20,000 bases of DNA from IMG/VR virus record IMGVR_UViG_3300042975_000037; one strand, given 5' to 3'. Below, one piece after another: positions 4,128 to 19,493 of this stretch. The stretch comes from an uncultured virus (IMG/VR IMGVR_UViG_3300042975_000037). Lineage: Duplodnaviria > Heunggongvirae > Uroviricota > Caudoviricetes. A model generated the notes under the pieces. The model saw only the letters and a list, made by a program, of their open reading frames with translations, was not told the DNA's origin and searched no databases. How positions within the stretch are numbered: position 1 is the first letter of the stretch; each line of letters opens with the position of its first letter. The translations under genes were made by a program, and so were the position numbers.

Positions 4128-5138
4128 TTATTTACCTAATATCATATTGGACAACATTTGAACCTTACTTCTAAATTCTGAAATAATATTTTCTTCTTTA
4201 TAAGTTATTCCCTGTATATTTTCTCCACATTTGCTACAATATTTGTTATTAATATCATTCTTATGCCCATTTGGACAAATATAAACATCTTGTTCCTTCC
4301 CGAACATCCCAAGTTTTGCGTTGGTGATTTGGCCTTTATTTGGTAAATCATCTAATTTGGCAAGTAGAATCTGCATATCTTTCAGATCTTCACAAGTATA
4401 AAACTCTTTTTCTGTCTCAAGTAATTTAATAGCATAATGTAGATCATCATCTATTAATTTTGTTACAGATTTAGCATCAAATAACTTGCAACTCTTTATT
4501 ACAAGAACTAATGTATCCTTATATTTGGGGAAAAGATTATATAAATAAGGGATAGAAAGAGACGGATCTATTTTTCTTATATATTCAATTACCCTTTTAG
4601 TATCTGTACCATCAGAATAATATAATTTCAGCATTTTTTCTACTAAAGATAATTGGGGATCTCTCATAATACTCTCCCATGTTGGTTGAGAAAGAAAATT
4701 TATGCCATTCTCTTTTACATATTCAACATTCTTTTTTGTTTCTAATTTATTGATCAAATCATCTGGATATACAATTTTCTCTTCTTTAATATCATTTTTA
4801 AATCTATTCTCTATTAAACATGCAGTTCCTGTGGCTGAAATCATCAGCATGCCTTTGCCTTTTCCGGAAATCTCGTCAAAGTCGATTCGAAAACCGACAA
4901 TAGCATTTGCTCCCAAGGCTTTTGCTTTTTTAGTTAAGCTGTCTTTAGCTGATTTATACATCAAATCCATTTTGTTCTGGTAAGTTCCAGAATTACCCCC
5001 AAATATATCAGTAAATGAAGCTGCTATATCTGAGAATAAATTTGTGCCTATTACAATATTAGAATTTACAACGCCCAAATAATCTTTTATAGGGCAACTT
5101 TCTATATTGCCTGTTGTAGTAATGATAAATCTTTCCAT
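4128..5138 (-). CDS. YbjQ/UPF0145-family domain protein with C-terminal zinc ribbon
   Basis: N-terminus IITTTGNIE...YLGVV...DIFGGNSGTYQ...KAKALGANAIVGFRIDFDEI...MLMISATGTA is the YbjQ signature. C-terminus has CPNGH...CSKC. Start is 5138 or 5147. Confidence 0.88.
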   Translation of the reverse strand: MERFIITTTGNIESCPIKDYLGVVNSNIVIGTNLFSDIAASFTDIFGGNSGTYQNKMDLMYKSAKDSLTKKAKALGANAIVGFRIDFDEISGKGKGMLMISATGTACLIENRFKNDIKEEKIVYPDDLINKLETKKNVEYVKENGINFLSQPTWESIMRDPQLSLVEKMLKLYYSDGTDTKRVIEYIRKIDPSLSIPYLYNLFPKYKDTLVLVIKSCKLFDAKSVTKLIDDDLHYAIKLLETEKEFYTCEDLKDMQILLAKLDDLPNKGQITNAKLGMFGKEQDVYICPNGHKNDINNKYCSKCGENIQGITYKEENIISEFRSKVQMLSNMILGK

Positions 5139-5159
5139 GAAAAACATTTATTTAAATAT

Positions 5160-5750
5160 CTATTTCTCTTTATAATCAGAAATATTCCATTCTGCATCAA
5201 CATATTCATCACCATTCGGATGTGAAGGTATTTTTACGGTAATTATAGAGTTTTTTGTAATCGTAAATTCTTTATAAACTACTGTTTCCAACGGATAATC
5301 ATCAGAAGTAATAACAATCATATATTTTCCGGATTTTAAAGTTCCGTCAGCATTTTTTACCGACAGATCATCATTAAAAAATACATTATAACTATATGGT
5401 TTATTACCACTTTTATGCAATTCTCCATCATGAATAGATGCATACTTTGATATAGGAAATATCGTACAATCCTCACCAAAAGAATTCTCATAATGATAAT
5501 ATGGTGGAGATACTGAACCATCCAACCACCAAGCAAGCAAAGGTTTCCCTTTTATAACAGTATCTCCGTCCTGTTTATAGAAAATATATACATTTCCTTC
5601 AGGTCTTACAACTGCATCGCTTGTAACATTAAACTCTAAAAATGAAAATGTATTTTTACTCGAATCATCTCCATCATCACCGCCCGAACATGCTGAAAAA
5701 GCAAACACAATGGCAAATGCCATCATCATAAAAAATAAAGTTTTCTTCAT
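5160..5750 (-). CDS. Lipoprotein of unknown function, probably surface-exposed
   Basis: MKK plus hydrophobic core plus FSA-C lipobox, followed by acidic SGGDDGDDS resembling the Bacteroidetes lipoprotein export signal. Confidence 0.82.
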   Translation of the reverse strand: MKKTLFFMMMAFAIVFAFSACSGGDDGDDSSKNTFSFLEFNVTSDAVVRPEGNVYIFYKQDGDTVIKGKPLLAWWLDGSVSPPYYHYENSFGEDCTIFPISKYASIHDGELHKSGNKPYSYNVFFNDDLSVKNADGTLKSGKYMIVITSDDYPLETVVYKEFTITKNSIITVKIPSHPNGDEYVDAEWNISDYKEK

Positions 5751-5802: not shown

Positions 5803-6003
5803 AAGAAAAGATAAAATTATTAATAAAAAGGAAGACTATTTTTGAGGGTAAGCAGCCTTAAATAACTATTCTGTGGGCTTTGCCGTGTAATACCTCGTGC
5901 TGTTTGTCTCGCTGCATTACGATAAGAAAAAAGAGAATACTTACAATGAGCCAGTTGTAAGTAACTCTTCGCAAACTGACTTCAGATTATCCGTTCCATT
6001 ACG

Positions 6004-6011
6004 TAATTTTG
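6004..6011 (+). promoter_or_regulatory. -7 box restarting transcription of the tail/lysis genes after the moron
   Basis: TAATTTTG 17 bp before ATG 6029. No clear -33 TTTG. Confidence 0.55.
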
Positions 6012-6028
6012 TCCTAAAGCGCAATGAA

Positions 6029-9000
6029 ATGGACATTTACGGAATAGATGATAAGGTCATACTTTCGGCGATTTTGACAAAGGATGCCGAACATGAAGAG
6101 GAGATGATGAAATCCGACTTCGTGAAATTGTCGTGGAAATCAGCTAATAAGGTAAGACTTCCGGCCGGATCATACATCGTTCCTTTTTCTGACGGTCTCA
6201 AATATCGTCTTTTCAAGCCTTATGAGCCTGAGCAGACCGATTCCGCCACATGGAAGTATGAACCACAGTTCCAACACCCTAAAATGTGGCTTTCAAAGTT
6301 GCCGTTTACCTCAACTGTTCCCGATACGGATAATACAACACATGAGCAACTTGAATGGAGCTATACAGGCATTCTGACGACTCTTTTACAGAAAGTATGT
6401 GACTTTATCAATAATCTTTTTGGTCTTTCCGGTGATGATAAGTTTACTTATACCATAGTTGGAAATGCAGATACGACCGTATCATTATCATGTAGTAATG
6501 TTGATGTGCTTTCTGCGCTTTCTTCTATTGCATCAGCATGTAAGGATTATACGTGTGAGTGGCATTTAGACTGGAACAACAAGGCACTCTACTTCGGCCA
6601 GATTGCATATAACAACGGCGAGGGGACTACTCCGGTATTGAAGGTTGGCGACAACGTGGAGAAAACGTCTGTCAACAGGCCTTCGGAAGGGTATTATAAT
6701 GTCTTTCGTCCGCAAGGATCTACAAAGAATATGTCTAAAAGACTTGATACGGGAGAAAATGTATCAAGCAGTCTGAGACTGGAACTCAACAAGAAGGACT
6801 ATCCCGATGGCGTGATTGATATGCGCACGGATCCTAAAGAGCCCAAGATGGAGCTCGGCCTTATCTTCGATGATGATTATCCTCATGTTGATCTCTATGC
6901 CTACAATGTTCGTAAGAGGACGATGTACATTAAGGACACTTCCACCGGAAAGTACATGAAGGACAGTGCCGGGAACTATATCCTCAAGACAATATGGTAT
7001 ATGCGCCTTGCCTATCCGACTTATGACACAGACGGAAAAGTAACGGGCTGGACGGATTACGTGGTAGACAAAAAGCAGGTATTAGCAGGCTATACCCTTT
7101 GTGGGACATTCAAGGCAAATACTCATGATGGCGCACTTGCGTCAACGCTTGTTGGCCTTCCTTCCAATGCAGACGGATTTGAGATCAAATATCATGATGG
7201 TGCAGAAACCATTTATCCCAATACGACTTCGGGCGATTCAGGTATGGACGTGCTCCTCGGAGATTACGAGATAATGCCTGTTACCGCTGGAAATGATAGC
7301 ACCTTTGTCCCTTCCAACGAATCAGACGCCCTTATCCCACGTGGTGAAAGTACGCCTTCCCTGAAAGGAAATATAGTTGTCCTGTATAATATTGCTATGG
7401 GTGATGCAGAGATAGCATCCGCACAGGATGATTTGAAGAATGACGCCCTGAAAAAGATAGCACAGAAACGTGCAGACCAGAATAACTATACATTCAGCTC
7501 CGATCCGACAGTATTCGAGAAATCAAATCCCGGACTGTATATTGGCAGAACGGTAACTTATAATGACAATAACGGCTATACTCTTTCAACGAGAGTATTG
7601 AAGCTCGTAACGAAGTTGGACCATCCTTATGAGCAGGAGATTACGGTCGGAAATCAGCGGATCAATGGCCCTGTAACTCAACTAAAAGAGGATGTAAAGA
7701 CTGTTTTGTCTGGAGATTGGGAAGGAGCCGGTCTGAATCCCACACAAGTTAAGAATCTCATAAGCAATTATACTTCTATCCGCTATCTATCCAAGACCAC
7801 AGATGATACCGCAGCAGGCAACATAAAGTTCCTGAAGGGACTGCAAATTGGTGATACTTTCACGAGCGGTTCAGAAGGCGGAGTGTTCAGGAAAGATGCA
7901 GACGGAAAGACCTATATCGAAGTAGATAAGGCCTATATCCGCACGAAGGCCATCTTTGACACTCTGGAGATACGGAAGTTTGAGGGAGCATCCGGAAACA
8001 GGATCATGTCTGATGCAAAGATGAAGTGCACGAGGGTTGAGAATGTCACTGAAACAGACAACTCCGCTGCCTACAGATGTTATTTCAAAGGTTCTGACGG
8101 TGATGATACGATCAGTAATGATTTCGTTGTCGGTGACCTCGCCTTCTGCAAGAAACAGACGGCCGGAAGTACGCATTATTTCTGGCGCAAAGTAGTTGCG
8201 GTCGGAACAGCAGTCAATGCGAACAATGAACTGTACATAGACCTTTCTAATGTTTCCGGGGAATATGACACGGACAGTGACGCTCCTCTTGTTCAGGACG
8301 ACATCATTCAGTTGGGTAACGTAAGCGATTCCACGAGACAGGGCGCAATAATCGAGTATACTTCCGGAGAGGATTCGCCTTCTTATAAAATCTATCAGGG
8401 TATTAAGACATTCTCTCTTGCTGGTTGTGATATACTCTCTATGGGCTATAATTCTGCCACGGGCAAGGCTTGTATGAGGGTCTACGGAGAAGCCTACATA
8501 GGAGCAAAAGACAAGAAATCATATATCGAATTTGATGGAACGGCTGTAAAGATTGTCGGTGATGTGTCTATGAGCACCGTTGACGATTCAGGAGGTAATT
8601 CTACTCCTATAGCAACTGCCATCAATAATGCTCAGAAGAATGCCACGGATGCGAAGAAAGCAGCCGGGAACGCCGTGACAAATACCACCAGCGAGTATGC
8701 CCAAAGCGACAGTGCTACTACGGCACCCACAAGCGGATGGAGTACGACATCGCCGACATGGAAACAGGGGTATTATATCTGGGTACGGACAACTATAAAG
8801 TATGGTGACGGAACATCTAATACATTAGATCCGGTTGTCCTTACAGGTAATACTGGAGGTATCGGACCGGTTGGCCCTACTGGCCCGAAAGGAGACACAG
8901 GAGCAACAGGACCGCAAGGACCTAAAGGCAATACCGGTGCGCAGGGCATACAAGGTCTGCAAGGTTTGCAAGGAGATAAAGGCGATCAAGGTATAAAGGG

Positions 9001-11902
9001 CGAAAAAGGCGATACCGGAGCAACAGGTGCGTCGGGACAAACTTCTTACTTCCATATCAAGTACAGTAATTCCTCTGACGGCTCAAACATGAATGAAACC
9101 GGAGGCATGTACATCGGAACTTATGTTGACTTCACGCAAGCAGATTCAACAGATAAGACCAAATACACGTGGGTATTGGTTAAGGGTGCACAGGGCGTAC
9201 AAGGCAACCAAGGTATAGCAGGAGCGAATGGTTCGAATGGTCAGACATCGTATTTGCATATAGCTTACGCAGACAGCTCGGATGGCAAGACAAACTTCAA
9301 CCAGACATCGGGTACTTATATCGGCCAGTACGTTGATTTTACACAGGCGGATTCTACCGATTATACTAAGTATAATTGGACTTTAATAAAGGGAGAAAAG
9401 GGTAACACCGGAGCCACTGGTGCCACTGGTCCTACCGGTCCCAAGGGAGCCACTGGAGCGACAGGACCACAGGGACCAAAGGGAGATACGGGCAATGACG
9501 GTATAGCCGGCAAGGATGGGGTAGGCATCAAGTCTACAACCATCACCTATGCTGTATCGAACAGTGGAACGTCAGCGCCTACGAGTGGGTGGAGCCCGAG
9601 TGTACCTTCAGCCAGTCCCGGGCAGTATCTATGGACCAAGACCATTTGGGGGTATACTGACAATACGAATGAGACGGGTTATAGCGTAGCACGTTACGGC
9701 AGCAATGGTGCACAGGGCCCTAAGGGTAACACCGGAGCCACTGGTGCAACAGGTGCTACTGGCCCCAAGGGAGCCACTGGAGCGACAGGACCACAGGGAC
9801 CAAAGGGAGATACGGGCAATGACGGTATAGCCGGCAAGGATGGGGTAGGCATCAAGTCTACAACCATCACCTATGCTGTATCGAACAGTGGAACGTCAGC
9901 GCCTACGAGTGGGTGGAGCCCGAGTGTACCTTCAGCCAGTCCCGGGCAGTATCTATGGACCAAGACCATTTGGGGGTATACTGACAATACGAATGAGACG
10001 GGTTATAGCGTAGCACGTTACGGCAGCAATGGTGCACAGGGCCCTAAGGGTAACACCGGAGCCACTGGTGCAACAGGTGCTACTGGCCCCAAGGGAGCCA
10101 CTGGAGCGACAGGACCACAGGGACCAAAGGGAGATACGGGCAATGACGGTATAGCCGGCAAGGATGGGGTAGGCATCAAGTCTACAACCATCACCTATGC
10201 TGTATCGAACAGTGGAACGTCAGCGCCTACGAGTGGGTGGAGCCCGAGTGTACCTTCAGCCAGTCCCGGGCAGTATCTATGGACCAAGACCATTTGGGGG
10301 TATACTGACAATACGAATGAGACGGGTTATAGCGTAGCACGTTACGGCAGCAATGGTGCACAGGGCCCTAAGGGTAACACCGGAGCCACTGGTGCAACAG
10401 GTGCTACTGGCCCCAAGGGAGCCACTGGAGCGACAGGACCACAGGGACCAAAGGGAGATACGGGCAATGACGGTATAGCCGGCAAGGATGGGGTAGGCAT
10501 CAAGTCTACAACCATCACCTATGCTGTATCGAACAGTGGAACGTCAGCGCCTACGAGTGGGTGGAGCCCGAGTGTACCTTCAGCCAGTCCCGGGCAGTAT
10601 CTATGGACCAAGACCATTTGGGGGTATACTGACAATACGAATGAGACGGGTTATAGCGTAGCACGTTACGGCAGCAATGGTGCACAGGGCCCTAAGGGTA
10701 ACACCGGAGCCACTGGTGCAACAGGTGCTACTGGCCCCAAGGGAGCCACTGGAGCGACAGGACCACAGGGACCTACAGGCAATACTGGAGCTGCTGGACC
10801 GCAAGGACCACAGGGGCCACAGGGAACAGGTGTATCATCAGTTCGCAGATGGTACTACCTCGGCACTTCAGCACCGGGCAAACCTACAACTTCTACTCCT
10901 TCAAGTTCCTGGACTACTACTGAACCAGCATACGCAGCCGGGAAAGTACTTTATTATACTGACGAAGTTACTTATACTAATGGTAGTTTTGCTTACTCTA
11001 ATGTGGCCGTTTATTCCGCTTATACCGCAGCAACGACTGCGCAGGATAACCTTGCCAGAGGATTGGGCTATAGCAGCTACTCCGATATGTACTCGAAAGC
11101 TATAGCCAACGGCAATACTATCGTAAGCGGAGGATATGTCAGAACTTCTTTGTTAGATGTCAAGGCTATTGTCGCACAAGGATTACAGGCGCAGACCATA
11201 GATGCAAAGAATGCAACAATCAACAATCTCACTGTCAATAATGCCAATGTAACAGGAAAAGTAATGGCTACCAGTGGAAATATTGGTAAATGGAGCATAT
11301 CTGCAAAAGGCGGATTAGTTAATACTGATGGTAAAGCTTATCTATGTGCTCAGTATAAGGATTGTAGTTTGACAATATCTAATACTAGTGCACATCCTAT
11401 AATATATGGTGGTGATGCAATACAAATGCCTTCAAATACTGACTTTGTTTGTATAAAAAATGATGATCCGGCAGCTAATGCTTTACATGTAATAGGATCC
11501 AGTAGTTTTGACAACACTATGCGTATTGCCAAACCAGCATTTACTACGAAGTATATATCTAATTCTGATGGTGGTGGAAAGATTGGAACAGATGTAACTG
11601 CACAGCAAGATGGTACATCCGGAATATTTACATTCGGATTATGGCCTTCAGTTATAATTTGTAATAATGATAATACTGATATTGGATTATCACTTCCTGC
11701 AAATGTTGAAAACGGGCAGATGTGTATTATATATACTACTGGAAGGCAAATTTGGCTGTCCTCATGGGCTTCTGGAGGAATGAATTATTCTGATAGCTGG
11801 AAAAGATATAATGAATCAGTGCATGTAGCAAGTTATACATGCGTATTTTGTGTTTACTCTTCAGGAGCACAGAGGTGGACCTGCCGTGATACAAGGCAAT
11901 AA
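6029..11902 (+). CDS. Large tail tip / host-specificity protein with collagen-like repeats (~1957 aa)
   Basis: Baseplate-hub-like N-terminal region (by position), then a [19 protein letters not shown] motif and G-X-Y collagen runs alternating with Trp/Tyr/Thr-rich modules. Ends with a beta-spike-like [13 protein letters not shown]...ATSGNIG segment and an AT-rich C-terminal tip. ATG 6029 preferred over GTG 5897 because the -7 box lies between them. Confidence 0.88.
9398..10773 (+). repeat. In-frame tandem repeat, 324-bp (108-aa) unit, about 4.2 copies
   Basis: GGGAGATACG recurs at 9481, 9805, 10129 and 10453. Copies look identical from 9440 to 10773; only the first-copy leader (9424-9439) differs. 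Confidence 0.97.
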
Positions 11903-13348: not shown

Positions 13349-13881
13349 TGACAGAAGAACAGCTTAGAAAGATAGCTCCTCATGTAAGTGAGGAGAACAT
13401 AAAGATTTACACCCCTTTACTGAATAAGTGGATGCCGTACTACAGCATTAACACGAAGTTGAGGCAGGCAGCGTTCATAGCCCAAATTTTACACGAAACT
13501 GACTGCTTTAGGTATACCGAAGAAATAGCCTCAGGGGCAGCATACGACACTGGAAGGCTTGCTATCAAGCTCGGTAACACCCCTCAAAAGGATGGCGATG
13601 GGGAAAAGTACAAGGGCAAAGGTTGTATCATGATAACGGGGAAAGATAACTATGAGGCCGTGTCAAAAGGATTAGGAGTTGATTTCGTTGCTCACCCGGA
13701 ACTACTTAAAGAGCCTTGTTATGCAGTACAATCTGCCTGCTGGTGGTGGACCACCCACGGACTCAATGCTCTGGCTGATAAAAAAGATTTTAAGGCAATC
13801 ACTCGAAAAATCAACGGCGGGTACAACGGTTACCTCGACAGGGTGATGTACTACAGGAGAGCACTGACAACATTATCTTAA
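13348..13881 (+). CDS. Glycoside hydrolase family 19 endolysin
   Basis: AAFIAQILHET...TEE...LGN...GDG.KYKGKG.I.ITGKDNY...SACWWW...ITRKINGGYNG..DR motifs. Confidence 0.93.
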   Translation: MTEEQLRKIAPHVSEENIKIYTPLLNKWMPYYSINTKLRQAAFIAQILHETDCFRYTEEIASGAAYDTGRLAIKLGNTPQKDGDGEKYKGKGCIMITGKDNYEAVSKGLGVDFVAHPELLKEPCYAVQSACWWWTTHGLNALADKKDFKAITRKINGGYNGYLDRVMYYRRALTTLS

Positions 13882-13907
13882 AAGAGGGGTATCCTGTAAA
13901 TACCCCT
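13880..13907 (-). terminator. Intrinsic terminator of the small minus-strand ORF; may also end the lysis mRNA
   Basis: AGGGGTAT (13885-13892) / ATACCCCT (13900-13907) with a 7-nt loop. Followed by CUUUU on the minus strand. Confidence 0.75.
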
Positions 13908-13917
13908 AAAAGTAGTA

Positions 13918-14049
13918 TTAGACCGCTTTTCTTTCATCGACCAGGAAAGAGAAATATTTCCCCTTCTTCGGATAAATCCGATGGCCGTTCCTAATGATAT
14001 AGGTACAAAAGATGCGGACTTTCCCATTTTCTTCTTGCGAATTGTTCAT
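13918..14049 (-). CDS. 43-aa basic/aromatic small protein not in the ORF track
   Basis: MNNSQEENGKVRIFCTYIIRNGHRIYPKKGKYFSFLVDERKAV. Preceded by AGAAAGGAGGT and followed after 10 bp by a terminator. Confidence 0.8.
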   Translation of the reverse strand: MNNSQEENGKVRIFCTYIIRNGHRIYPKKGKYFSFLVDERKAV

Positions 14050-14119
14050 ACTACGCACCTCCTTTCTTTTTGCGCATCAACCTGTAATTGAATACGCTTC
14101 TTGCACTTAGATAAGCGCA

Positions 14120-14228
14120 ACAAAAAGCCCACGGCTTACAGGACCATGGGCATTGTTTCTTTTTGTGGAAACACAAGAGTGAAGGATGTTTGTTCGTCGA
14201 AAGGAGTATGCTTTTTGAACAATTCGCA
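14120..14228 (-). ncRNA. Putative ~110-nt leader/antisense-acting RNA ending in an intrinsic terminator
   Basis: Begins just after a -7-like box and ends in GCCCAUGGU-CCUGUAA-GCCGUGGGC-UUUUUGUU. G-U pairs favour the minus strand. The 5' end is complementary to the downstream SD and start codon. Confidence 0.65.
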
Positions 14229-14231
14229 CTG

Positions 14232-14239
14232 CGAAGGTA
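14232..14239 (-). promoter_or_regulatory. -7-like promoter box for the leader RNA / small ORF
   Basis: TACCTTCG(CA), one mismatch to TAnnTTTG. Predicted start near 14227 coincides with the 5' end of the long-range pairing. Confidence 0.55.
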
Positions 14240-14283
14240 TACAATTTAGTATATTGTTTAGTAATTTTTTAAGTTAAAAATTG

Positions 14284-14334
14284 ACAAATGTATGCTATAC
14301 GTATGCTATGTATATGTTATACGTATACATTTGT
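14284..14334. repeat. 11-bp-period direct repeats nested in a 10-bp inverted repeat
   Basis: ACAAATGTAT (14284-14293) / ATACATTTGT (14325-14334). Units GTATGCTATAC, GTATGCTATGT, ATATGTTATAC and GTATAC start at 14290, 14301, 14312 and 14323. Confidence 0.75.
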
Positions 14335-14367
14335 AAATATATCATACATCATTTTTAAAAATATTCG

Positions 14368-14411
14368 TATCTTTGTGACGCGTTTTTATAGTGTTAGATT
14401 AAAAAAGGGCG
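14368..14411 (+). ncRNA. Promoter plus sRNA-like motif, copy 1 (lacks the right hairpin arm)
   Basis: TATCTTTG at 14368-14375, then GTTTTTATAGTGTTAGATTAAA (14382-14403; 21/22 identical to 18009-18030), then AGGGCG. Confidence 0.5.
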
Positions 14412-14452
14412 CAAAAATATAAGTTTTAAAATTCAAATGTTAGCTGATTAAA

Positions 14453-15445
14453 CTAAAATGGTACCTCATTCGTGTCATTTGTTTTAATATAATCTGGCTT
14501 TTTAACATCAAAATGCCTATCAAGGATAGCAGAGTCTCCAATTTTCATCACTTCTGCATCAAGATAATGATTAATGATATGGTTTGTTATTAAGTCTATT
14601 ACTATATTTTGCTTAAAAGGAAATAAATATTTGGAATAATTACTTTTTATCTCTCTTGATACAGCACAATGAATATCACTCTGAGAAATATAATATTCTA
14701 TGGAACTATATGTTGTTGTTTTCTTGATACTAATATTTCGTTCCATCCATCCAGGATCATTCAGTTTACTGATAAGGTCATTTATCTTTAATTTTTGGCA
14801 GCATTTGAAGATCCAATAGAGTAGTATAATAATTAATAGGACGATAAATATAATGCCGATAATATTGTTATTTATACCCAGAACACCGTTTAAAGATGTC
14901 CTGACTGTCTTAAAACACATCGAAATCATAGCAATTAAGGAAAATATACTAACGCCCTTTCCTAAAGGTTTAACCGCAAAGTGTTTACGTATTTCTTCTT
15001 TGCTTTTATCATCGTCTTTCCTTCTTTTTGTAGAAAGTCTTTCTTTTAGTGATTGATTTTCATCTTCCAATATTTTGACTTTGCCTTCTAAAAAAGTTAT
15101 ATGTGTAGCCAACCTATCTTTTTCATCATAGACCGCTTTCACCTCAATGAGGGAATCAATTTCGTCTTTTTTCTTGGCGATGATAGCCATTGTATCTTTA
15201 TTCTGATTTGCAGGAACAATATCAGTAATAGGGGGGTGAGCCGTCTGATGTTCCTCTTTAAATTTATCATAGAGTTTCTTAACTTTATCAAATGTTTCAC
15301 TGTTATGCTTAGCTTCAAGCTTACCTTCTGCGTGGTCAGGATGATACTTCCTAAGCGCATTTAATAGTGCAGACAAAATCTCCTCGTCAGTAGCATTCTC
15401 CGACAAGTTTAGCTGCTCTATAATATCTTTTCTATTCTCCGCCAT
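14453..15445 (-). CDS. J-domain (DnaJ-like) membrane protein
   Basis: N-terminal LNLSENATDEEI...LRKYHPD...FDKVKKLYDKF with intact HPD, then a coiled coil, two hydrophobic helices and an unknown C-terminal domain. Confidence 0.8.
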   Translation of the reverse strand: MAENRKDIIEQLNLSENATDEEILSALLNALRKYHPDHAEGKLEAKHNSETFDKVKKLYDKFKEEHQTAHPPITDIVPANQNKDTMAIIAKKKDEIDSLIEVKAVYDEKDRLATHITFLEGKVKILEDENQSLKERLSTKRRKDDDKSKEEIRKHFAVKPLGKGVSIFSLIAMISMCFKTVRTSLNGVLGINNNIIGIIFIVLLIIILLYWIFKCCQKLKINDLISKLNDPGWMERNISIKKTTTYSSIEYYISQSDIHCAVSREIKSNYSKYLFPFKQNIVIDLITNHIINHYLDAEVMKIGDSAILDRHFDVKKPDYIKTNDTNEVPF

Positions 15446-15486: not shown

Positions 15487-16550
15487 AATGATTATCCTCA
15501 ATTAGGTGATTAATAATTTTGAGGTTTTCTCGATATTCCTTATCTTTGCATCAATTATCAAAACCTCGTCAAGATGAAACTGATAGAATTTTCAAAACGT
15601 TTCCCCGATGAAGCTTCCTGCGAAGAGTATCTCAAGAATCATCGGGAAAAAGTTGGTGTTGTCTGTAAGCGCTGCGGTGGTCATCAACAAATCTGGGATA
15701 AGTATAATAAATGTTGGATTTGCAAGAAGTGCGGTCACAAGACGACGTTAACGGCTGATACCGTAATGCATAACAGTAAATTACCATTAATGTATTGGTT
15801 CACTGCCATACACCTGCTGACCTCCACGCGGAAAACGTTCTCGGCCCTTGAAATGCAGCGCCAGTTGGGTCATAAGCGTTATCAGCCAATTTGGGAGATG
15901 ATGCATAAACTACGGTCGGTAATGGGGCAGCGCGATACCACATATCAATTGTCCGAGAGTATTGAGCTTGACGAAGCCTTCTTTTCCACGGAAAATTCAG
16001 ACGAGACAAAGAAACAGGAAAAGCGGAAGGCAGGCGCAGGAAGTCAGCGCAAGTCAAAAGTTCTGGTAATGATAGAAAGTAAAGCAGTTCCTGAGAATAA
16101 ACAGAAGAAAGGAAAGAAAGATCGCAAGTCAGGTCATATAAAAATGAAGGTCGTTCCTGATGTACAGGCCTGTACCGTTACCGAAGTCTCAAAGGTCGCA
16201 GTTGCAGCGGATTCCAGAATAATCACGGATGACTCCAGATCTCATACGAAACTCAAAGGTTATTTTAAAGAGGTATATCCCATAAAGACCCTTCCTGAGC
16301 AGGCATCGAAAATACTGCCGTGGGTTCACACTGCCATATCGAATGCAAAGTCACTTTTGCTTGATATGTATCATGGCATCAAAGACGAGTTCCTTCAGAG
16401 TTATCTGGATGAATTCTGCTGGAAGTTCAACCGCAGATCATTTGGTGACAGACTTTTTGACAGGCTACTTGTTGCGGCTATGTCCTATAGGCCGATGTTT
16501 CAGCACAGAATCTATGATTGAAGAAAATCACTCAGTTGAGGATAATCATA
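15487..16550 (+). mobile_element. IS1595-family insertion sequence A (1064 bp)
   Basis: TIRs ATGATTATCCTCAATTAGGTGATT (15488-15511) and the reverse complement of 16526-16549 (ATGATTATCCTCAACTGAGTGATT). 8-bp direct repeat TAAATTGA at 15479-15486 and 16551-16558. Internal promoter TTTG-N19-TATCTTTG (15518-15548). Confidence 0.93.
15574..16521 (+). CDS. IS1595-family transposase
   Basis: FPDEASC, Zn ribbon CKRC...CKKC, FSALEMQRQLG HTH, IELDEAFF, ITDD, LPWVH and LQSYLDEFCWKFNRR. Confidence 0.96.
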   Translation: MKLIEFSKRFPDEASCEEYLKNHREKVGVVCKRCGGHQQIWDKYNKCWICKKCGHKTTLTADTVMHNSKLPLMYWFTAIHLLTSTRKTFSALEMQRQLGHKRYQPIWEMMHKLRSVMGQRDTTYQLSESIELDEAFFSTENSDETKKQEKRKAGAGSQRKSKVLVMIESKAVPENKQKKGKKDRKSGHIKMKVVPDVQACTVTEVSKVAVAADSRIITDDSRSHTKLKGYFKEVYPIKTLPEQASKILPWVHTAISNAKSLLLDMYHGIKDEFLQSYLDEFCWKFNRRSFGDRLFDRLLVAAMSYRPMFQHRIYD

Positions 16551-16747: not shown

Positions 16748-17922
16748 TTCTGTGTAGTGATTGCGGTACTAATTTTTGTTAATTCAATATATATATCTTT
16801 GTAAATAGCTAAAATACAACTACTTTTATGGAAAAATACAGACCGATGTTGCTCAAAGACTTTTTCAGTAGATTTCCTGACGAGGATAGTTGTGTTGACT
16901 ATTTCAAGGATATTCGATTGTCCATAGGGATGAAGTGCCCCAAATGCGGTGGAACTATTTTCAAATGGTATGTTGGCAGCCGCAAGTTTCAATGCTCCTC
17001 TTGTGGATATAGATTTCCATTGACCAAGGGAACGGTGATGGAACAAAGCCATCTGTCATTATCTGATTGGTTCTTCACTGCCAACATGATGACCTCCATA
17101 AAGCAAGTCTTGTCTGCAAAAGAGATACAACATCAACTGGAGAAGAAATATTATCCACCTGTCTGGCTTATGATGATGAAGTATAGGGACATCATGGGCA
17201 AAAGAGATGCCACATACAAATTATCTGATGAAGTGGAGCTCGATATTTCTTTCTTCCCCACGTCGTCAATAGCTAATGTCGATGGGGAGGATGTAATAAA
17301 GACACAAAAGACTCCTGTTCTCGTTATAGCAGAAAGCAAGCCTGTTGACGGCATATTGGCTGAATATTTCTCAAAACTCACTTTCCCTGAGTATGTTAAC
17401 AAGGCATCAAGACTATTACAGAAAGAGGACAAAATGAATATAAAGAAGGCGGTAAAATATATAAAGATGTTCGCAATACCCAACCAACAGTATGATACTA
17501 TAAAACCATTCGTTGAGGAAGCCGTTGCAAAGGAATCAAGAACCATTACCGATGGTGGTCACAATCTCATAAAGTTGAAAGAACTTGTCAAAGAGCATAT
17601 TCCTTACCCGGAAACAGAAGAAGATGTTCACGAAGTCGTCAAGACCAAACTGCCGTGGGTACATATAATAACTGGAGAATGCCGTAGCGGAATAGAAGCG
17701 ATTCATAAAGATGTTGATAAGAGATTCCTTCAACTCTATCTTAACGAATACTGTTGGAAGTTCAATCGTCGATTCTTCAGAGACAGCAAGAAGGAGAAAT
17801 TCGATTTGTTTGACCACCTTATTAGAATATCAGCTCAATACACATCAGATATAAAATGGAGGGATTATGAGAAGATGGCCAACGCTATTAATATTTGTTA
17901 GTACCGCAATCACCACACAGAA
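16748..17922 (+). mobile_element. IS1595-family insertion sequence B (1175 bp)
   Basis: 25-bp TIRs TTCTGTGT(A/G)GTGATTGCGGTACTAA at 16748-16772 and 17898-17922, one mismatch. 8-bp direct repeat AACTTTTT at 16740-16747 and 17923-17930. Confidence 0.93.
16828..17901 (+). CDS. IS1595-family transposase (divergent)
   Basis: FPDEDSC, CPKC...CSSC, LSAKEIQHQL, VELDISFF, ITDGG, LPWVH and LQLYLNEYCWKFNRR. Stop codon lies inside the right TIR. Confidence 0.94.
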   Translation: MEKYRPMLLKDFFSRFPDEDSCVDYFKDIRLSIGMKCPKCGGTIFKWYVGSRKFQCSSCGYRFPLTKGTVMEQSHLSLSDWFFTANMMTSIKQVLSAKEIQHQLEKKYYPPVWLMMMKYRDIMGKRDATYKLSDEVELDISFFPTSSIANVDGEDVIKTQKTPVLVIAESKPVDGILAEYFSKLTFPEYVNKASRLLQKEDKMNIKKAVKYIKMFAIPNQQYDTIKPFVEEAVAKESRTITDGGHNLIKLKELVKEHIPYPETEEDVHEVVKTKLPWVHIITGECRSGIEAIHKDVDKRFLQLYLNEYCWKFNRRFFRDSKKEKFDLFDHLIRISAQYTSDIKWRDYEKMANAINIC

Positions 17923-18839: not shown

Positions 18840-19493
18840 TCATACATTATTCTTATCTCTTTTTTCGATAGATTCCTTTGTACTGGAAGGGAGTTTCTTA
18901 AACATATCATTAATTTGTTTTGGCTCGCTTACCATATTTTGTGTTATAATATTCAAAAGTTTCATTAATTGAAGAGCTATATTTTCATCATCAACATCAA
19001 ATGCAATAGTACCTGGATGCACTGCTTTGTTACCTATAACACGGACTAAATCCAAAGCCTGTTGAACTTTCTGTGGCAGTCCTTTTTGTACGAGAGAGCC
19101 AATATTCTTATTAATATCTCGATCATTTTCACCCAATTCACGGCAGAACTTATCTATAGCTAAACGAAGTAATGCACATGCTGCCCTCGGTGATTTGTTA
19201 TAAATAGAACCGGCTTCATTGTATAATTGTTTGACAGATTCTGGCATATCGGAATTAGCTTCTTCGGGGAGGACCTCTGGATATATGTATTTCCCTTTAT
19301 CCCAAATAATATATTGTCCGCAGTTTAGACACTTTGCAATAATCACAGAATTATTAGTGTTATATATTCCATGTGTGCTTATCAATTTAGGATTTAAAGA
19401 TACCGAAATATATTCCATTTGTGCCAATGTTTGGCAATGAGGGCATGTAAAAGAGCCTTTATTAAAATCTGGTTTAGAGTATTTTTGTGCCAT
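18840..19493 (-). CDS. DUF4145 (HEPN-like) protein with N-terminal zinc ribbon
   Basis: CPHC...CLNC, then YNEA...SPRAACALLRLAIDK...I..LV..GL...ALDLVRVIGNKAVHPG. Confidence 0.88.
   Translation of the reverse strand: MAQKYSKPDFNKGSFTCPHCQTLAQMEYISVSLNPKLISTHGIYNTNNSVIIAKCLNCGQYIIWDKGKYIYPEVLPEEANSDMPESVKQLYNEAGSIYNKSPRAACALLRLAIDKFCRELGENDRDINKNIGSLVQKGLPQKVQQALDLVRVIGNKAVHPGTIAFDVDDENIALQLMKLLNIITQNMVSEPKQINDMFKKLPSSTKESIEKRDKNNV

Follow-up and report, generated by a model that had tools for sequence, protein, structure and literature searches.

A conserved leader predicted to fold its own 5' end over the extended Shine-Dalgarno sequence and start of a small accessory gene in Bacteroidota phages

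Messenger RNAs that keep their own start site closed have been described in several settings. Type I toxin mRNAs locked by folding back reportedly include hok with its fbi element, aapA1 of H. pylori, tisB and zorO with their 5' untranslated regions, and Fst RNA I with its 5' stem-loop, and the maturation-protein gene of phage MS2 is said to be governed by a long-distance interaction between the 5' leader and the Shine-Dalgarno (SD) sequence, so that it is translated only before folding of the RNA is complete. A further point of reference is the SD itself: ribosomes of Bacteroidia are reported to keep the anti-SD covered by bS21, bS18 and bS6 and to disregard SD sequences (PMC9976891, PMC7797042), only extended SDs of 9-13 base pairs (bp) and -14 to -21 kcal/mol, typical of rpsU, get read (PMC9976891), and such extended SDs are preferred by ribosomes without bS21 (PMC9976891; related: PMC13000453, PMC13000457). 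No Bacteroidales satisfied the criteria for rpsU autoregulation in the first of these studies (PMC9976891). The locus described here lies in 20,000 nucleotides (nt) of DNA from an uncultured Caudoviricetes virus (IMG/VR record IMGVR_UViG_3300042975_000037), and this whole stretch is called the window below; coordinates are positions in it, with the minus strand read as RNA unless stated. Region 14239-13880 on the minus strand holds a predicted promoter, a structured leader and an open reading frame (ORF) of 43 amino acids (aa), and is best read as a stand-alone accessory gene ('moron') carried by a Bacteroidota phage or prophage.

An earlier note on this DNA, made from the letters alone, had drawn attention to an antisense copy of the SD and start codon at the 5' end of the transcript, and all of its coordinates agree with the sequence. 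Specifically, UGCGAAUUGUUCA (14228..14216) is perfectly complementary (100%) to UGAACAAUUCGCA (14048..14036), 167 nt apart, CUCCUUUC (14206..14199) is complementary to GAAAGGAG (14066..14059) at the SD, and GCAU (14211..14208) pairs with GUGC (14058..14055) to bridge the two helices. The minimum free energy (MFE) fold of the minus strand from 14232 to 13880 includes exactly this helix of 13+4+8 bp (P1; 14228-14199 with 14066-14036), and at -125.8 kcal/mol (z = -6.82) it was matched in stability by none of the 100 shuffles with which it was compared. The 13-mer occurs twice in the window, once per strand, where 0.02 occurrences are expected and none of 200 shuffles reached two, and the pairing of the arms in the window is beyond chance. 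The energy of the P1 duplex is -34.6 kcal/mol in the window and -40.0 kcal/mol in the relative L024, stronger than that of the duplex between the SD and 16S rRNA. The terminator that had been placed between the arms was picked up by a consensus terminator scan as a terminator-like hairpin (14151..14127) followed by UUUUU: it has nine pairs, six of them G-C, and a 7-nt loop, and TTTTTGTTG follows, which gives the sequence signal of an intrinsic terminator, a G+C-rich hairpin directly before a U-run, over 14151-14122. The competing pairing of UUGUUC (14222-14217) with GAACAA (14195-14190) also exists; the MFE fold of the 107-nt terminated leader has this pairing, and the hairpin it closes (14190..14222) is a candidate for an early, metastable state.

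The design recurs well beyond the window. A scan of IMG/VR with an alignment of the encoded protein family gave 316 candidate stretches, 247 of which encode a relative, and 80 loci were kept, with ORFs of 44-51 aa that start with GUG, AUG or UUG 5-9 nt past the SD match. The SD motif (A/U)(G/A)AGGAGGUG precedes the ORF at 79 of the 80 loci, the exception (L081) being a contig that ends 67 nt upstream, and 42 of 46 distinct leaders have the anti-SD motif at a distance of 141-166 nt upstream from the SD; the other four comprise one truncated leader and three C-to-U variants (CAUCUCC in L029 and L056, CAUCUC in L066). An nhmmer profile of 40 relatives, built with the window left out, matches the window at 14236-14021 on the minus strand and nowhere else in it (E 3.6e-23; profile positions 10-242 of 243), and the leader is, as judged by such comparison, homologous across phages. 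For the counting of pairs, 41 distinct leaders were aligned with MAFFT and not fitted to any structure (alignment A3), the structure was written from one relative, and 3' partners slid by 1-3 columns served as the control. On this alignment 92.2% of 2965 cells are paired, as against 35.5-40.8% with slid partners, and 39 of 74 pairs have changed on both sides. RNAalifold, run on A3, predicts 41 pairs, 23 with compensatory changes, and single-sequence folds give the same closed architecture in all 15 of the diverse leaders folded.

Where the 5' arm pairs with codons 2-5 (the homologue of P1a), all nine pairs show compensatory changes and 97.3% of cells are paired, one column in the relatives reading AU:25, GC:10, UA:4. 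In the helix between anti-SD and SD, 98.2% of cells are paired and the only variation consists of C-to-U changes within the anti-SD strand; at the position of the P1b 5' arm the relatives have (U)AACACCUCC, on the SD side all 41 leaders keep GGAGGTG (GGAGGUG in RNA) unchanged, and the AAA 5' of GGAGG is conserved though unpaired. This asymmetric C-to-U variation, the G-U wobbles and the unpaired AAA together point to a structure in the RNA of the minus strand and to an extra constraint on the SD side, most simply ribosome binding. The stem of the internal terminator (GCCC/GGGC) and its T-run are invariant in all 41 leaders, and compensatory changes are found at six of nine pairs of the P5 stem in the relatives and at eight of nine pairs of the P6 stem. 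As such, the comparison shows that the predicted RNA fold, in which the 5' end covers SD, start and first codons, is conserved together with an internal terminator signal. The earlier note had spoken of an ORF that is locked twice, by premature termination and by translational sequestration, and as the description of a conserved design this is fair: pairing of the 5' arm with SD and start covaries in the 41 leaders, and the internal hairpin with its U-run is constant.

The same arms might be taken for DNA inverted repeats around an invertible segment of ~190 bp, a phase-variable promoter, and not for RNA structure: an imperfect inverted repeat of ~30 bp does flank ~130-170 bp of DNA, and Bacteroides uses many invertible DNA switches. 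This is very improbable. The arms contain G-U wobbles (for example, UG:7 and UG:5 in helix 2) that would be A-C mismatches on DNA, they form the outer helix of nested covarying hairpins with loop contacts, and one of them is coding sequence. There is no recombinase among the 18 ORFs scanned, and all 41 distinct leaders lie in one orientation relative to the ORF; no inversion joint was reported in two short contigs from RNA-labelled runs (X1 and X2, described below), a weak absence given that these are contigs only.

What P1 would bury is an SD of the extended type. AGAAAGGAGGUG matches, as a perfect complement over 12 nt, the final 12 nt of the 16S rRNA of Bacteroides pyogenes, which ends in GGAACACCUCCUUUCU, and the duplex reaches -20.6 kcal/mol (-23.3 kcal/mol for L024 with the same tail). 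With 12 pairs at this energy, the window SD falls within the range of rpsU-type SDs (9-13 consecutive pairs, -14 to -21 kcal/mol), a comparison that is approximate, the energies coming from ViennaRNA duplexfold here and from free_scan in PMC9976891. In the window AAGGAGGTG occurs only at this SD and AAGGAGGUG has one occurrence in 20 kb, while the other 16 ORF starts displayed are A-rich upstream and carry no SD; between SD and ORF the sequence runs AGAAAGGAGGUG-CGUAGU-AUG. A stretch of 8-9 nt of the 16S tail is copied in the anti-SD arm (in the relatives, UAACACCUCC repeats 9 nt of it), which is in effect, to judge from its letters, a cis mimic of the anti-SD of the ribosome. The anti-SD hidden in Bacteroidia ribosomes and an SD of 12-13 nt together suggest a need for ribosomes with a free 16S tail.

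Beyond the closing helix, the hairpin loops appear to touch one another. In the relatives the loop of P2 (CUGUCA) is complementary to that of P5 (UGACAG), with three sequences that switch both (CUGUAA/UUACAG), and the internal terminator loop (CCUGUA) likewise complements that of P6 (UACAGG), with the co-changes CCUGCA/UGCAGG and CCUGCUA/UAGCAGG. Over these two contacts, 12 pairs in all, 92.2% of cells are paired versus 28.8-37.3% with slid partners, 7 of 12 pairs are compensatory, and none of 500 shuffles does as well; taken alone, the internal terminator and P6 loops (columns 153-158/225-230) reach 91.1% paired cells, and one of their pairs reads UA:25 and CG:12. The loop of the 3' terminator is of the same ACAGG type as that of P6, and it covaries with the internal terminator loop better than P6 does (98.4% paired; columns 123-128/404-409 of alignment A5; UA:25 and CG:15 at the variable pair). 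In L066 and L068, P6 lacks the motif and the complementarity of the internal and 3' terminator loops is retained. The leader is thus predicted to be a larger tertiary fold with kissing loops and not merely a clamp. In the window itself, the loop CCUGUAA (14142-14136) faces UUACAGG twice, at 14087-14081 and 13899-13893.

The findings favor, at a probability of about 0.7, a default-off gene held by a translational lock in cis and an attenuator. In such a scheme, a host-type promoter would give rise to an RNA whose first ~30 nt are antisense to its own initiation region ~165 nt downstream. The 5' arm may at first be held in a weak local hairpin, and many or most transcripts would presumably end at the conserved intrinsic terminator as a leader of ~107 nt. 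Read-through RNA would then close, as the covariation argues, with the 25-bp P1 burying the extended SD, the AUG and codons 2-5, and contacts of the internal terminator loop with the loops of P6 and the 3' terminator would hold the fold, to which the relatives would add the contact of P2 with P5. Synthesis of the protein would be confined to a short interval during transcription, or would follow removal or displacement of the 5' arm, and translation may also depend on ribosomes with a free 16S tail, which could possibly invade the closed RNA. Control of this tightness would suit a harmful or dose-critical protein.

The start of this transcript is predicted from a -7 box. TAnnTTTG, which we take to be the Bacteroides -7 element with transcription starting a few nt downstream, is exact in 35 of 41 aligned leaders, and the box stops 4-5 nt short of the base at which the pairing of P1 begins. 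The earlier proposal that pairing sets in with the first nucleotides of the transcript fits this spacing, which holds in 41 of 41 leaders; the start itself is a predicted one, and to that extent the proposal remains a prediction. The palindrome TTCGCA-N-TGCGAA noted at the predicted start was found at 14223-14235. As a conserved operator it was set aside, being peculiar to the window and absent in the relatives, and a second promoter between terminator and SD was likewise rejected, as the alignment consensus holds no TAnnTTTG box there. Directly upstream of the cassette promoter, 14280-14349 is a dense A+T-rich block of palindromes and direct repeats (arms 14280-14293/14325-14338; TATGCTATACGTAT repeated at 14291 and 14313), partly kept in L003 and L004, and looks like an operator. 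In RNA-labelled data, a contig of 237 nt from run X1 (labelled RNA, probably DNA) matches 13961-14195 with 2 differences, and one of 189 nt from run X2 (an oligo-dT RNA library) matches 13905-14093 with 5 differences; near-identical sequence is thus present in those libraries, in the form of assembled contigs that carry no start, end, strand or level.

An elaborate leader of this kind could also be a sensor, whose fold binds some partner, be it a ligand, a protein of the host or the phage, the gene's own small product (autoregulation) or a ribosome whose 16S tail is free, and thereby switches termination, opens P1, or both. Riboswitches and ribosomal-protein leaders usually act through a terminator together with SD sequestration, the tertiary architecture is more elaborate and more conserved than a simple lock would require, and the product is small and basic, like many RNA-binding autoregulators; the 8-9 nt of 16S tail copied by the anti-SD arm and an SD of rpsU strength would fit a ribosome as the thing sensed. 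This is nevertheless unlikely, for the helices and loop-loop pairs account for nearly all conserved nt and leave no conserved unpaired junction that would suggest a ligand pocket. No mutually exclusive antiterminator was found (a candidate seen by eye in some relatives, GACAUU/AAUGUC, is not conserved), nor is there an association with metabolic genes. Rfam 15 gave 16 weak matches in window positions 13700-14600, all far below the gathering score (best 22.2 bits versus 72), and no family at gathering score in 11 relatives.

The lock would guard a small basic protein of a family without a name. A phmmer search against 1.84 billion representatives returned 41 proteins at E<=1e-3, three of them at E<=1e-10; 39 of the 41 are 39-75 aa long with the core IFCRYIxKNGKRIYPKxxKxFxFxVD, and the window ORF shares 37-60% identity with these 39 aligned small relatives. 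The alignment leaves out P0002 (1971 aa) and P0032 (624 aa), two long, repetitive proteins in which a short stretch matched many times. A word-index protein search with the 43-aa ORF had returned the query only, and the exhaustive HMMER search was needed to find relatives. Over 28 core codons of 41 sequences, pairwise divergence at codon positions 1, 2 and 3 is 0.141, 0.124 and 0.395; the third position is about three times more diverged than the first and second, a coding signature, and on this evidence the ORF is a real gene. An AlphaFold (AF2) model built with the alignment has a predicted local distance difference test score of 82.3 and shows four strands and a short helix, so that the product is predicted to be a conserved, basic, all-beta protein of 43-44 aa. 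Cluster names and the ESM Atlas call its members only 'hypothetical protein', and Pfam holds no match to Ribosomal_S21 at E<=0.01 or E<=1. Among genome matches of the family, 21 loci were confirmed out of 137 candidates, mostly in Bacteroidota: Bacteroides pyogenes (a prophage), Bacteroides sp., Rikenellaceae, Marinifilaceae, Paludibacter, Prolixibacteraceae and Saccharicrinis. The few carriers outside this phylum belong to Omnitrophota, Saccharibacteria, Elusimicrobiales and Abditibacteriales, and the Saccharibacteria (L095, L102, L103) carry members of the small-protein family.

The product and its leader can also be read as a single-promoter module resembling a toxin-antitoxin system of type I, with the terminated leader of ~107-119 nt acting in trans as an antisense RNA and the small protein inhibiting growth. 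This reading is compatible with a lock in cis, and termination efficiency would decide how much antisense RNA there is per mRNA. Three leader modules would face the mRNA: the 5' tail would bind SD and start, the P2 loop would meet the P5 loop, and the terminator loop would pair with the loops of P6 and the 3' terminator. Each structured module upstream of the internal terminator is indeed complementary to one downstream, the two ACAGG-type loops (P6 and 3' terminator) per single CCUGU loop leave one spare for a second molecule, the terminator is invariant and always encloses the anti-start arm, and the cassette has accessory and defence genes of the prophage around it (a PD-T7-4 homologue at 18840-19493). 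RNA I and RNA II of the par (Fst) system, too, reportedly pair by multi-site, loop-first recognition. Other considerations make it doubtful, if possible. Pairing in cis is kinetically favored over pairing in trans, which renders a separate role unnecessary, and a separate antisense gene is lacking: five phage records each contain the 5' half of the leader once, and the window gives a single profile match. The protein is charged and predicted to be all-beta, as opposed to the hydrophobic peptides typical of type I toxins, the searches of Pfam, NCBIfam, PHROGs and PADLOC gave no toxin family match for it, and both its toxicity and a short RNA species would be hypothetical.

A bolder version joins this idea to the state of the ribosome, and is improbable as it stands. 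The element would be a ribosome-state-gated, single-transcript toxin-antitoxin or abortive-infection-like switch of Bacteroidota phages, in which one promoter gives an excess of terminated antisense leader, whose arm mimics the 16S tail, and a minority of read-through mRNA. Its SD of 12-13 nt would be read only by ribosomes with a freed anti-SD, for instance when bS21 is lost or displaced under stress or attack by another phage, and the small basic protein might then act on the cell or on the translation machinery. If true, this would be the first accessory gene outside rpsU that exploits 'specialised' ribosomes lacking bS21, and RNA-controlled toxin genes would gain a new layout.

The preferred reading, a default-off gene with a lock in cis and an attenuator, has its own difficulties, and the following points weigh against it. 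That none of 500 shuffles was as good as the observed pairing values on A3 speaks for it, yet the count overstates significance because the leaders share ancestry and the structure was taken from one of them, the slid-partner control being the fairer one. The local hairpin of the relatives (UUGGAG...CUCCAA) is paired in 83.3% of cells versus 22.5-56.9% with slid partners, which is modest support. Distant genomic relatives lend support, the initiation region being MFE-paired with an arm more than 80 nt upstream in 9 of 17 cases versus 40 of 204 shuffled controls, but the shuffle control here is approximate. The window copy is a reduced variant: the P2 hairpin (loop CUGUCA) that in relatives kisses the P5 loop (UGACAG) is absent, the P5 loop reads AUCU, and both partners of this contact (K1) are gone together. 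Transcript ends are predicted, the start deriving from a promoter motif, the RNA-labelled data consist of short assembled contigs from two runs, one of them probably DNA, and termination at the internal hairpin in Bacteroidota is a prediction, with no antiterminator found. Since Bacteroidia ribosomes are reported to be SD-blind, repression may act by burying the start codon and not the SD. Lastly, searches for a function of the small protein came back empty: Pfam, NCBIfam, PHROGs and PADLOC gave no match (the only row in the family searches, DUF7443 at E 0.038, lies below its cut-off), Foldseek with the AF2 model gave none at E<=0.001 (the best-ranked, chains of eukaryotic ribosomal proteins with E about 1 and a template modelling score of about 0.4, are not meaningful), and VIA-align gave none at Z>=2 among 48,161 chains.

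In the same distant relatives, inspection by eye places an internal G+C-rich hairpin with a U-run between arm and start in 6 of the 8 displayed, and 4 of those 6 lack any SD. Such pairing and hairpins, in some cases without an SD, suggest that the double lock travels with the protein family, SD or not. The Omnitrophota loci (L094, L100) show long-range pairing over an SD-like GGGAGGUGAGG start region, with no obvious internal terminator. The features of the window copy are collected in Table 1.

Table 1. Features of the cassette in the window, listed from the promoter to the end of the transcript
Feature	Position	Strand	Basis or remark
Bacteroidota-type -7 box TACCTTCG	14232..14239	-	One position off TAnnTTTG; predicted start ~14228-14226
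P1a 5' arm UGCGAAUUGUUCA	14216..14228	-	Antisense to UG of AUG and codons 2-5; perfect 13-nt repeat; paired in MFE fold
P1b 5' arm (anti-SD) GCAUACUCCUUUC	14199..14211	-	Shares CUCCUUUC with the 16S rRNA 3' tail; MFE fold
5' segment in order, UGCGAAUUGUUCA-AAAA-GCAUACUCCUUUC	14228-14199	-	Sequence read
Competing local hairpin UUGUUC/GAACAA, encloses anti-SD	14190..14222	-	MFE of 107-nt leader
Small hairpin UGUUUC-N8-GAAACA	14154..14173	-	MFE folds; aligns with P3 block of relatives
Internal terminator-like hairpin GCCCAUGG-loop-CCGUGGGC and U-run	14151-14127; U-run 14126-14122	-	Terminator scan; predicted
Internal terminator loop CCUGUAA	14142-14136	-	Predicted kissing-loop partner; loop covariation in relatives
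Hairpin P5 UUGCGCUU-AUCU-AAGUGCAA	14101..14120	-	MFE fold; without the UGACAG loop of relatives
Hairpin P6, loop UUACAGG (14087-14081) complementary to internal terminator loop	14072..14097	-	MFE fold
Extended SD AGAAAGGAGGUG	14056..14067	-	14066-14055 doubles as P1b 3' arm
P1a 3' arm, UG of AUG and codons 2-5	14036..14048	-	Inverted repeat, MFE, covariation
ORF of 43 aa MNNSQEENGKVRIFCTYIIRNGHRIYPKKGKYFSFLVDERKAV	13918..14049	-	Translation; unnamed small basic protein family
3' terminator hairpin AGGGGUAU-UUACAGG-AUACCCCU (13907-13885), then CUUUU	13880..13907	-	Sequence read; predicted

In its genomic setting, the window covers a phage tail and lysis region, with a tape measure, a 2001-aa collagen-like fibre, a holin, two lipoproteins and a GH19 endolysin that ends at 13881; the cassette converges on the endolysin, and accessory genes follow. 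In annotated relatives the element is antisense to its neighbors on both sides (a MazG-like pyrophosphatase, NinG/Rap, an excisionase-like regulator, or endolysin and holin), and the 5' half of the leader has exactly one copy in each of the 5 phage records searched. A near-identical phage contig (L001/L002) shows 100% identity over 13870-14460 (591 nt) versus 95.65% over the surrounding 2.2 kb, a block that could stem from recent exchange or from strong constraint. Two other relatives of the phage, L003 and L004, share the promoter region 14230-14314 (87.5% identity; 4264-4351 in L004) with different cargo, a 61-aa ORF and a 297-aa SDH-type ClpP-like protease (PF01972), swapped exactly at the predicted start. 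At the level of nucleotide searches, blastn of 13880-14450 found no match in 50,697 phage records, the exact 30-mer of the 5' arm had 0 matches in genome contigs, and the nearest virus record (G001) has no copy of the element.

Several neighbors deserve mention in their own right. Directly upstream of the cassette and on the same strand, 14453-15445 (-) encodes a protein of 330 aa that has hydrophobic segments and, at its N terminus, a DnaJ (J) domain; it matched no defence system. Further along, 18840-19493 (-) encodes a 217-aa DUF4145 protein that matches the PADLOC model for the anti-phage system PD-T7-4 (E 1.1e-74), and this homologue suggests that the region past the lysis genes is a prophage defence or accessory island. 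Between them lie two IS1595-family transposase elements at 15487-16549 and 16749-17922 (ORFs 15574-16521 and 16828-17901), both insertions relative to L002, whose flanks join directly. Within the tail module, 4128-5750 (-) lies on the opposite strand with a G+C content of 0.31, encodes a 339-aa YbjQ-domain protein and a 196-aa protein, and looks like another accessory insertion. The 2001-aa tail fibre (5897-11902) has long collagen triple-helix repeats, with a G+C content of up to 0.55.

Taken together, the analysis describes a widespread family, a structured leader with a small protein, in Bacteroidota phages and prophages that is absent from Rfam 15, Pfam, NCBIfam and PHROGs. A literature search, which included the peptide motif, found no description of the element in what it covered, with subscription journals and ~1.7 million PMC articles lying outside the search. 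The locus offers a natural extended SD of rpsU strength in a lineage reported to be SD-blind, and specifically in Bacteroidales, whose rpsU lacks such an SD, so that it could serve as a second, independent test case for the question whether ribosomes with a free 16S tail have dedicated clients. The helix between 5' end and start codon, the internal terminator and the three mutually complementary loops would make a compact model of how phage accessory genes are silenced, and possibly a new layout for RNA-controlled toxin genes. At a practical level, genes for proteins of 43-44 aa are often missed or left as 'hypothetical', and the leader provides a specific signature for their annotation.

Set against the systems from which this account began, the element shares a good deal with type I toxin mRNAs. 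Here, too, the primary transcript is predicted to be inert and folded into an untranslatable form, in silico and with support from covariation, as a distant 5' (or 5' and 3') element pairs with SD and start; metastable local hairpins may form during transcription, the 5' region appears to contact the 3' terminal hairpin, and a small gene on a mobile element comes with its own promoter and terminator. Unlike type I toxins, it has no separately transcribed antisense RNA gene, an intrinsic terminator lies inside the leader, the product is charged and modelled as all-beta and not as a hydrophobic helix, and the host lineage does not normally use SDs. With the MS2 maturation gene it shares an RNA 5' end that would pair with the first gene's SD and leave only nascent, unfolded RNA open to translation; it differs in being an accessory gene of a DNA phage served by the host polymerase, with an internal terminator and predicted kissing loops, and with an arm that also extends over the start and four codons. 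Like riboswitch and ribosomal-protein leaders, it is a structured 5' leader with an intrinsic terminator and an anti-SD helix, whereas it has no Rfam match and no candidate ligand pocket or antiterminator was found in it, and its closing helix starts at the very 5' end and extends into the coding sequence. In contrast to rpsU, the gene is phage-borne, and a partial copy of the 16S tail, in cis, masks its SD; bS21 is helical, and the product, with no Pfam match and an all-beta model, is not bS21. The likeness to rpsU of Bacteroidia lies in 12-13 consecutive SD-16S pairs at ~-20 kcal/mol in a lineage that hides its anti-SD, and the difference is that no Bacteroidales qualified by the rpsU criteria, yet these elements occur in Bacteroides (PMC9976891). 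This is a known type of control carried by a new RNA and a new protein family.

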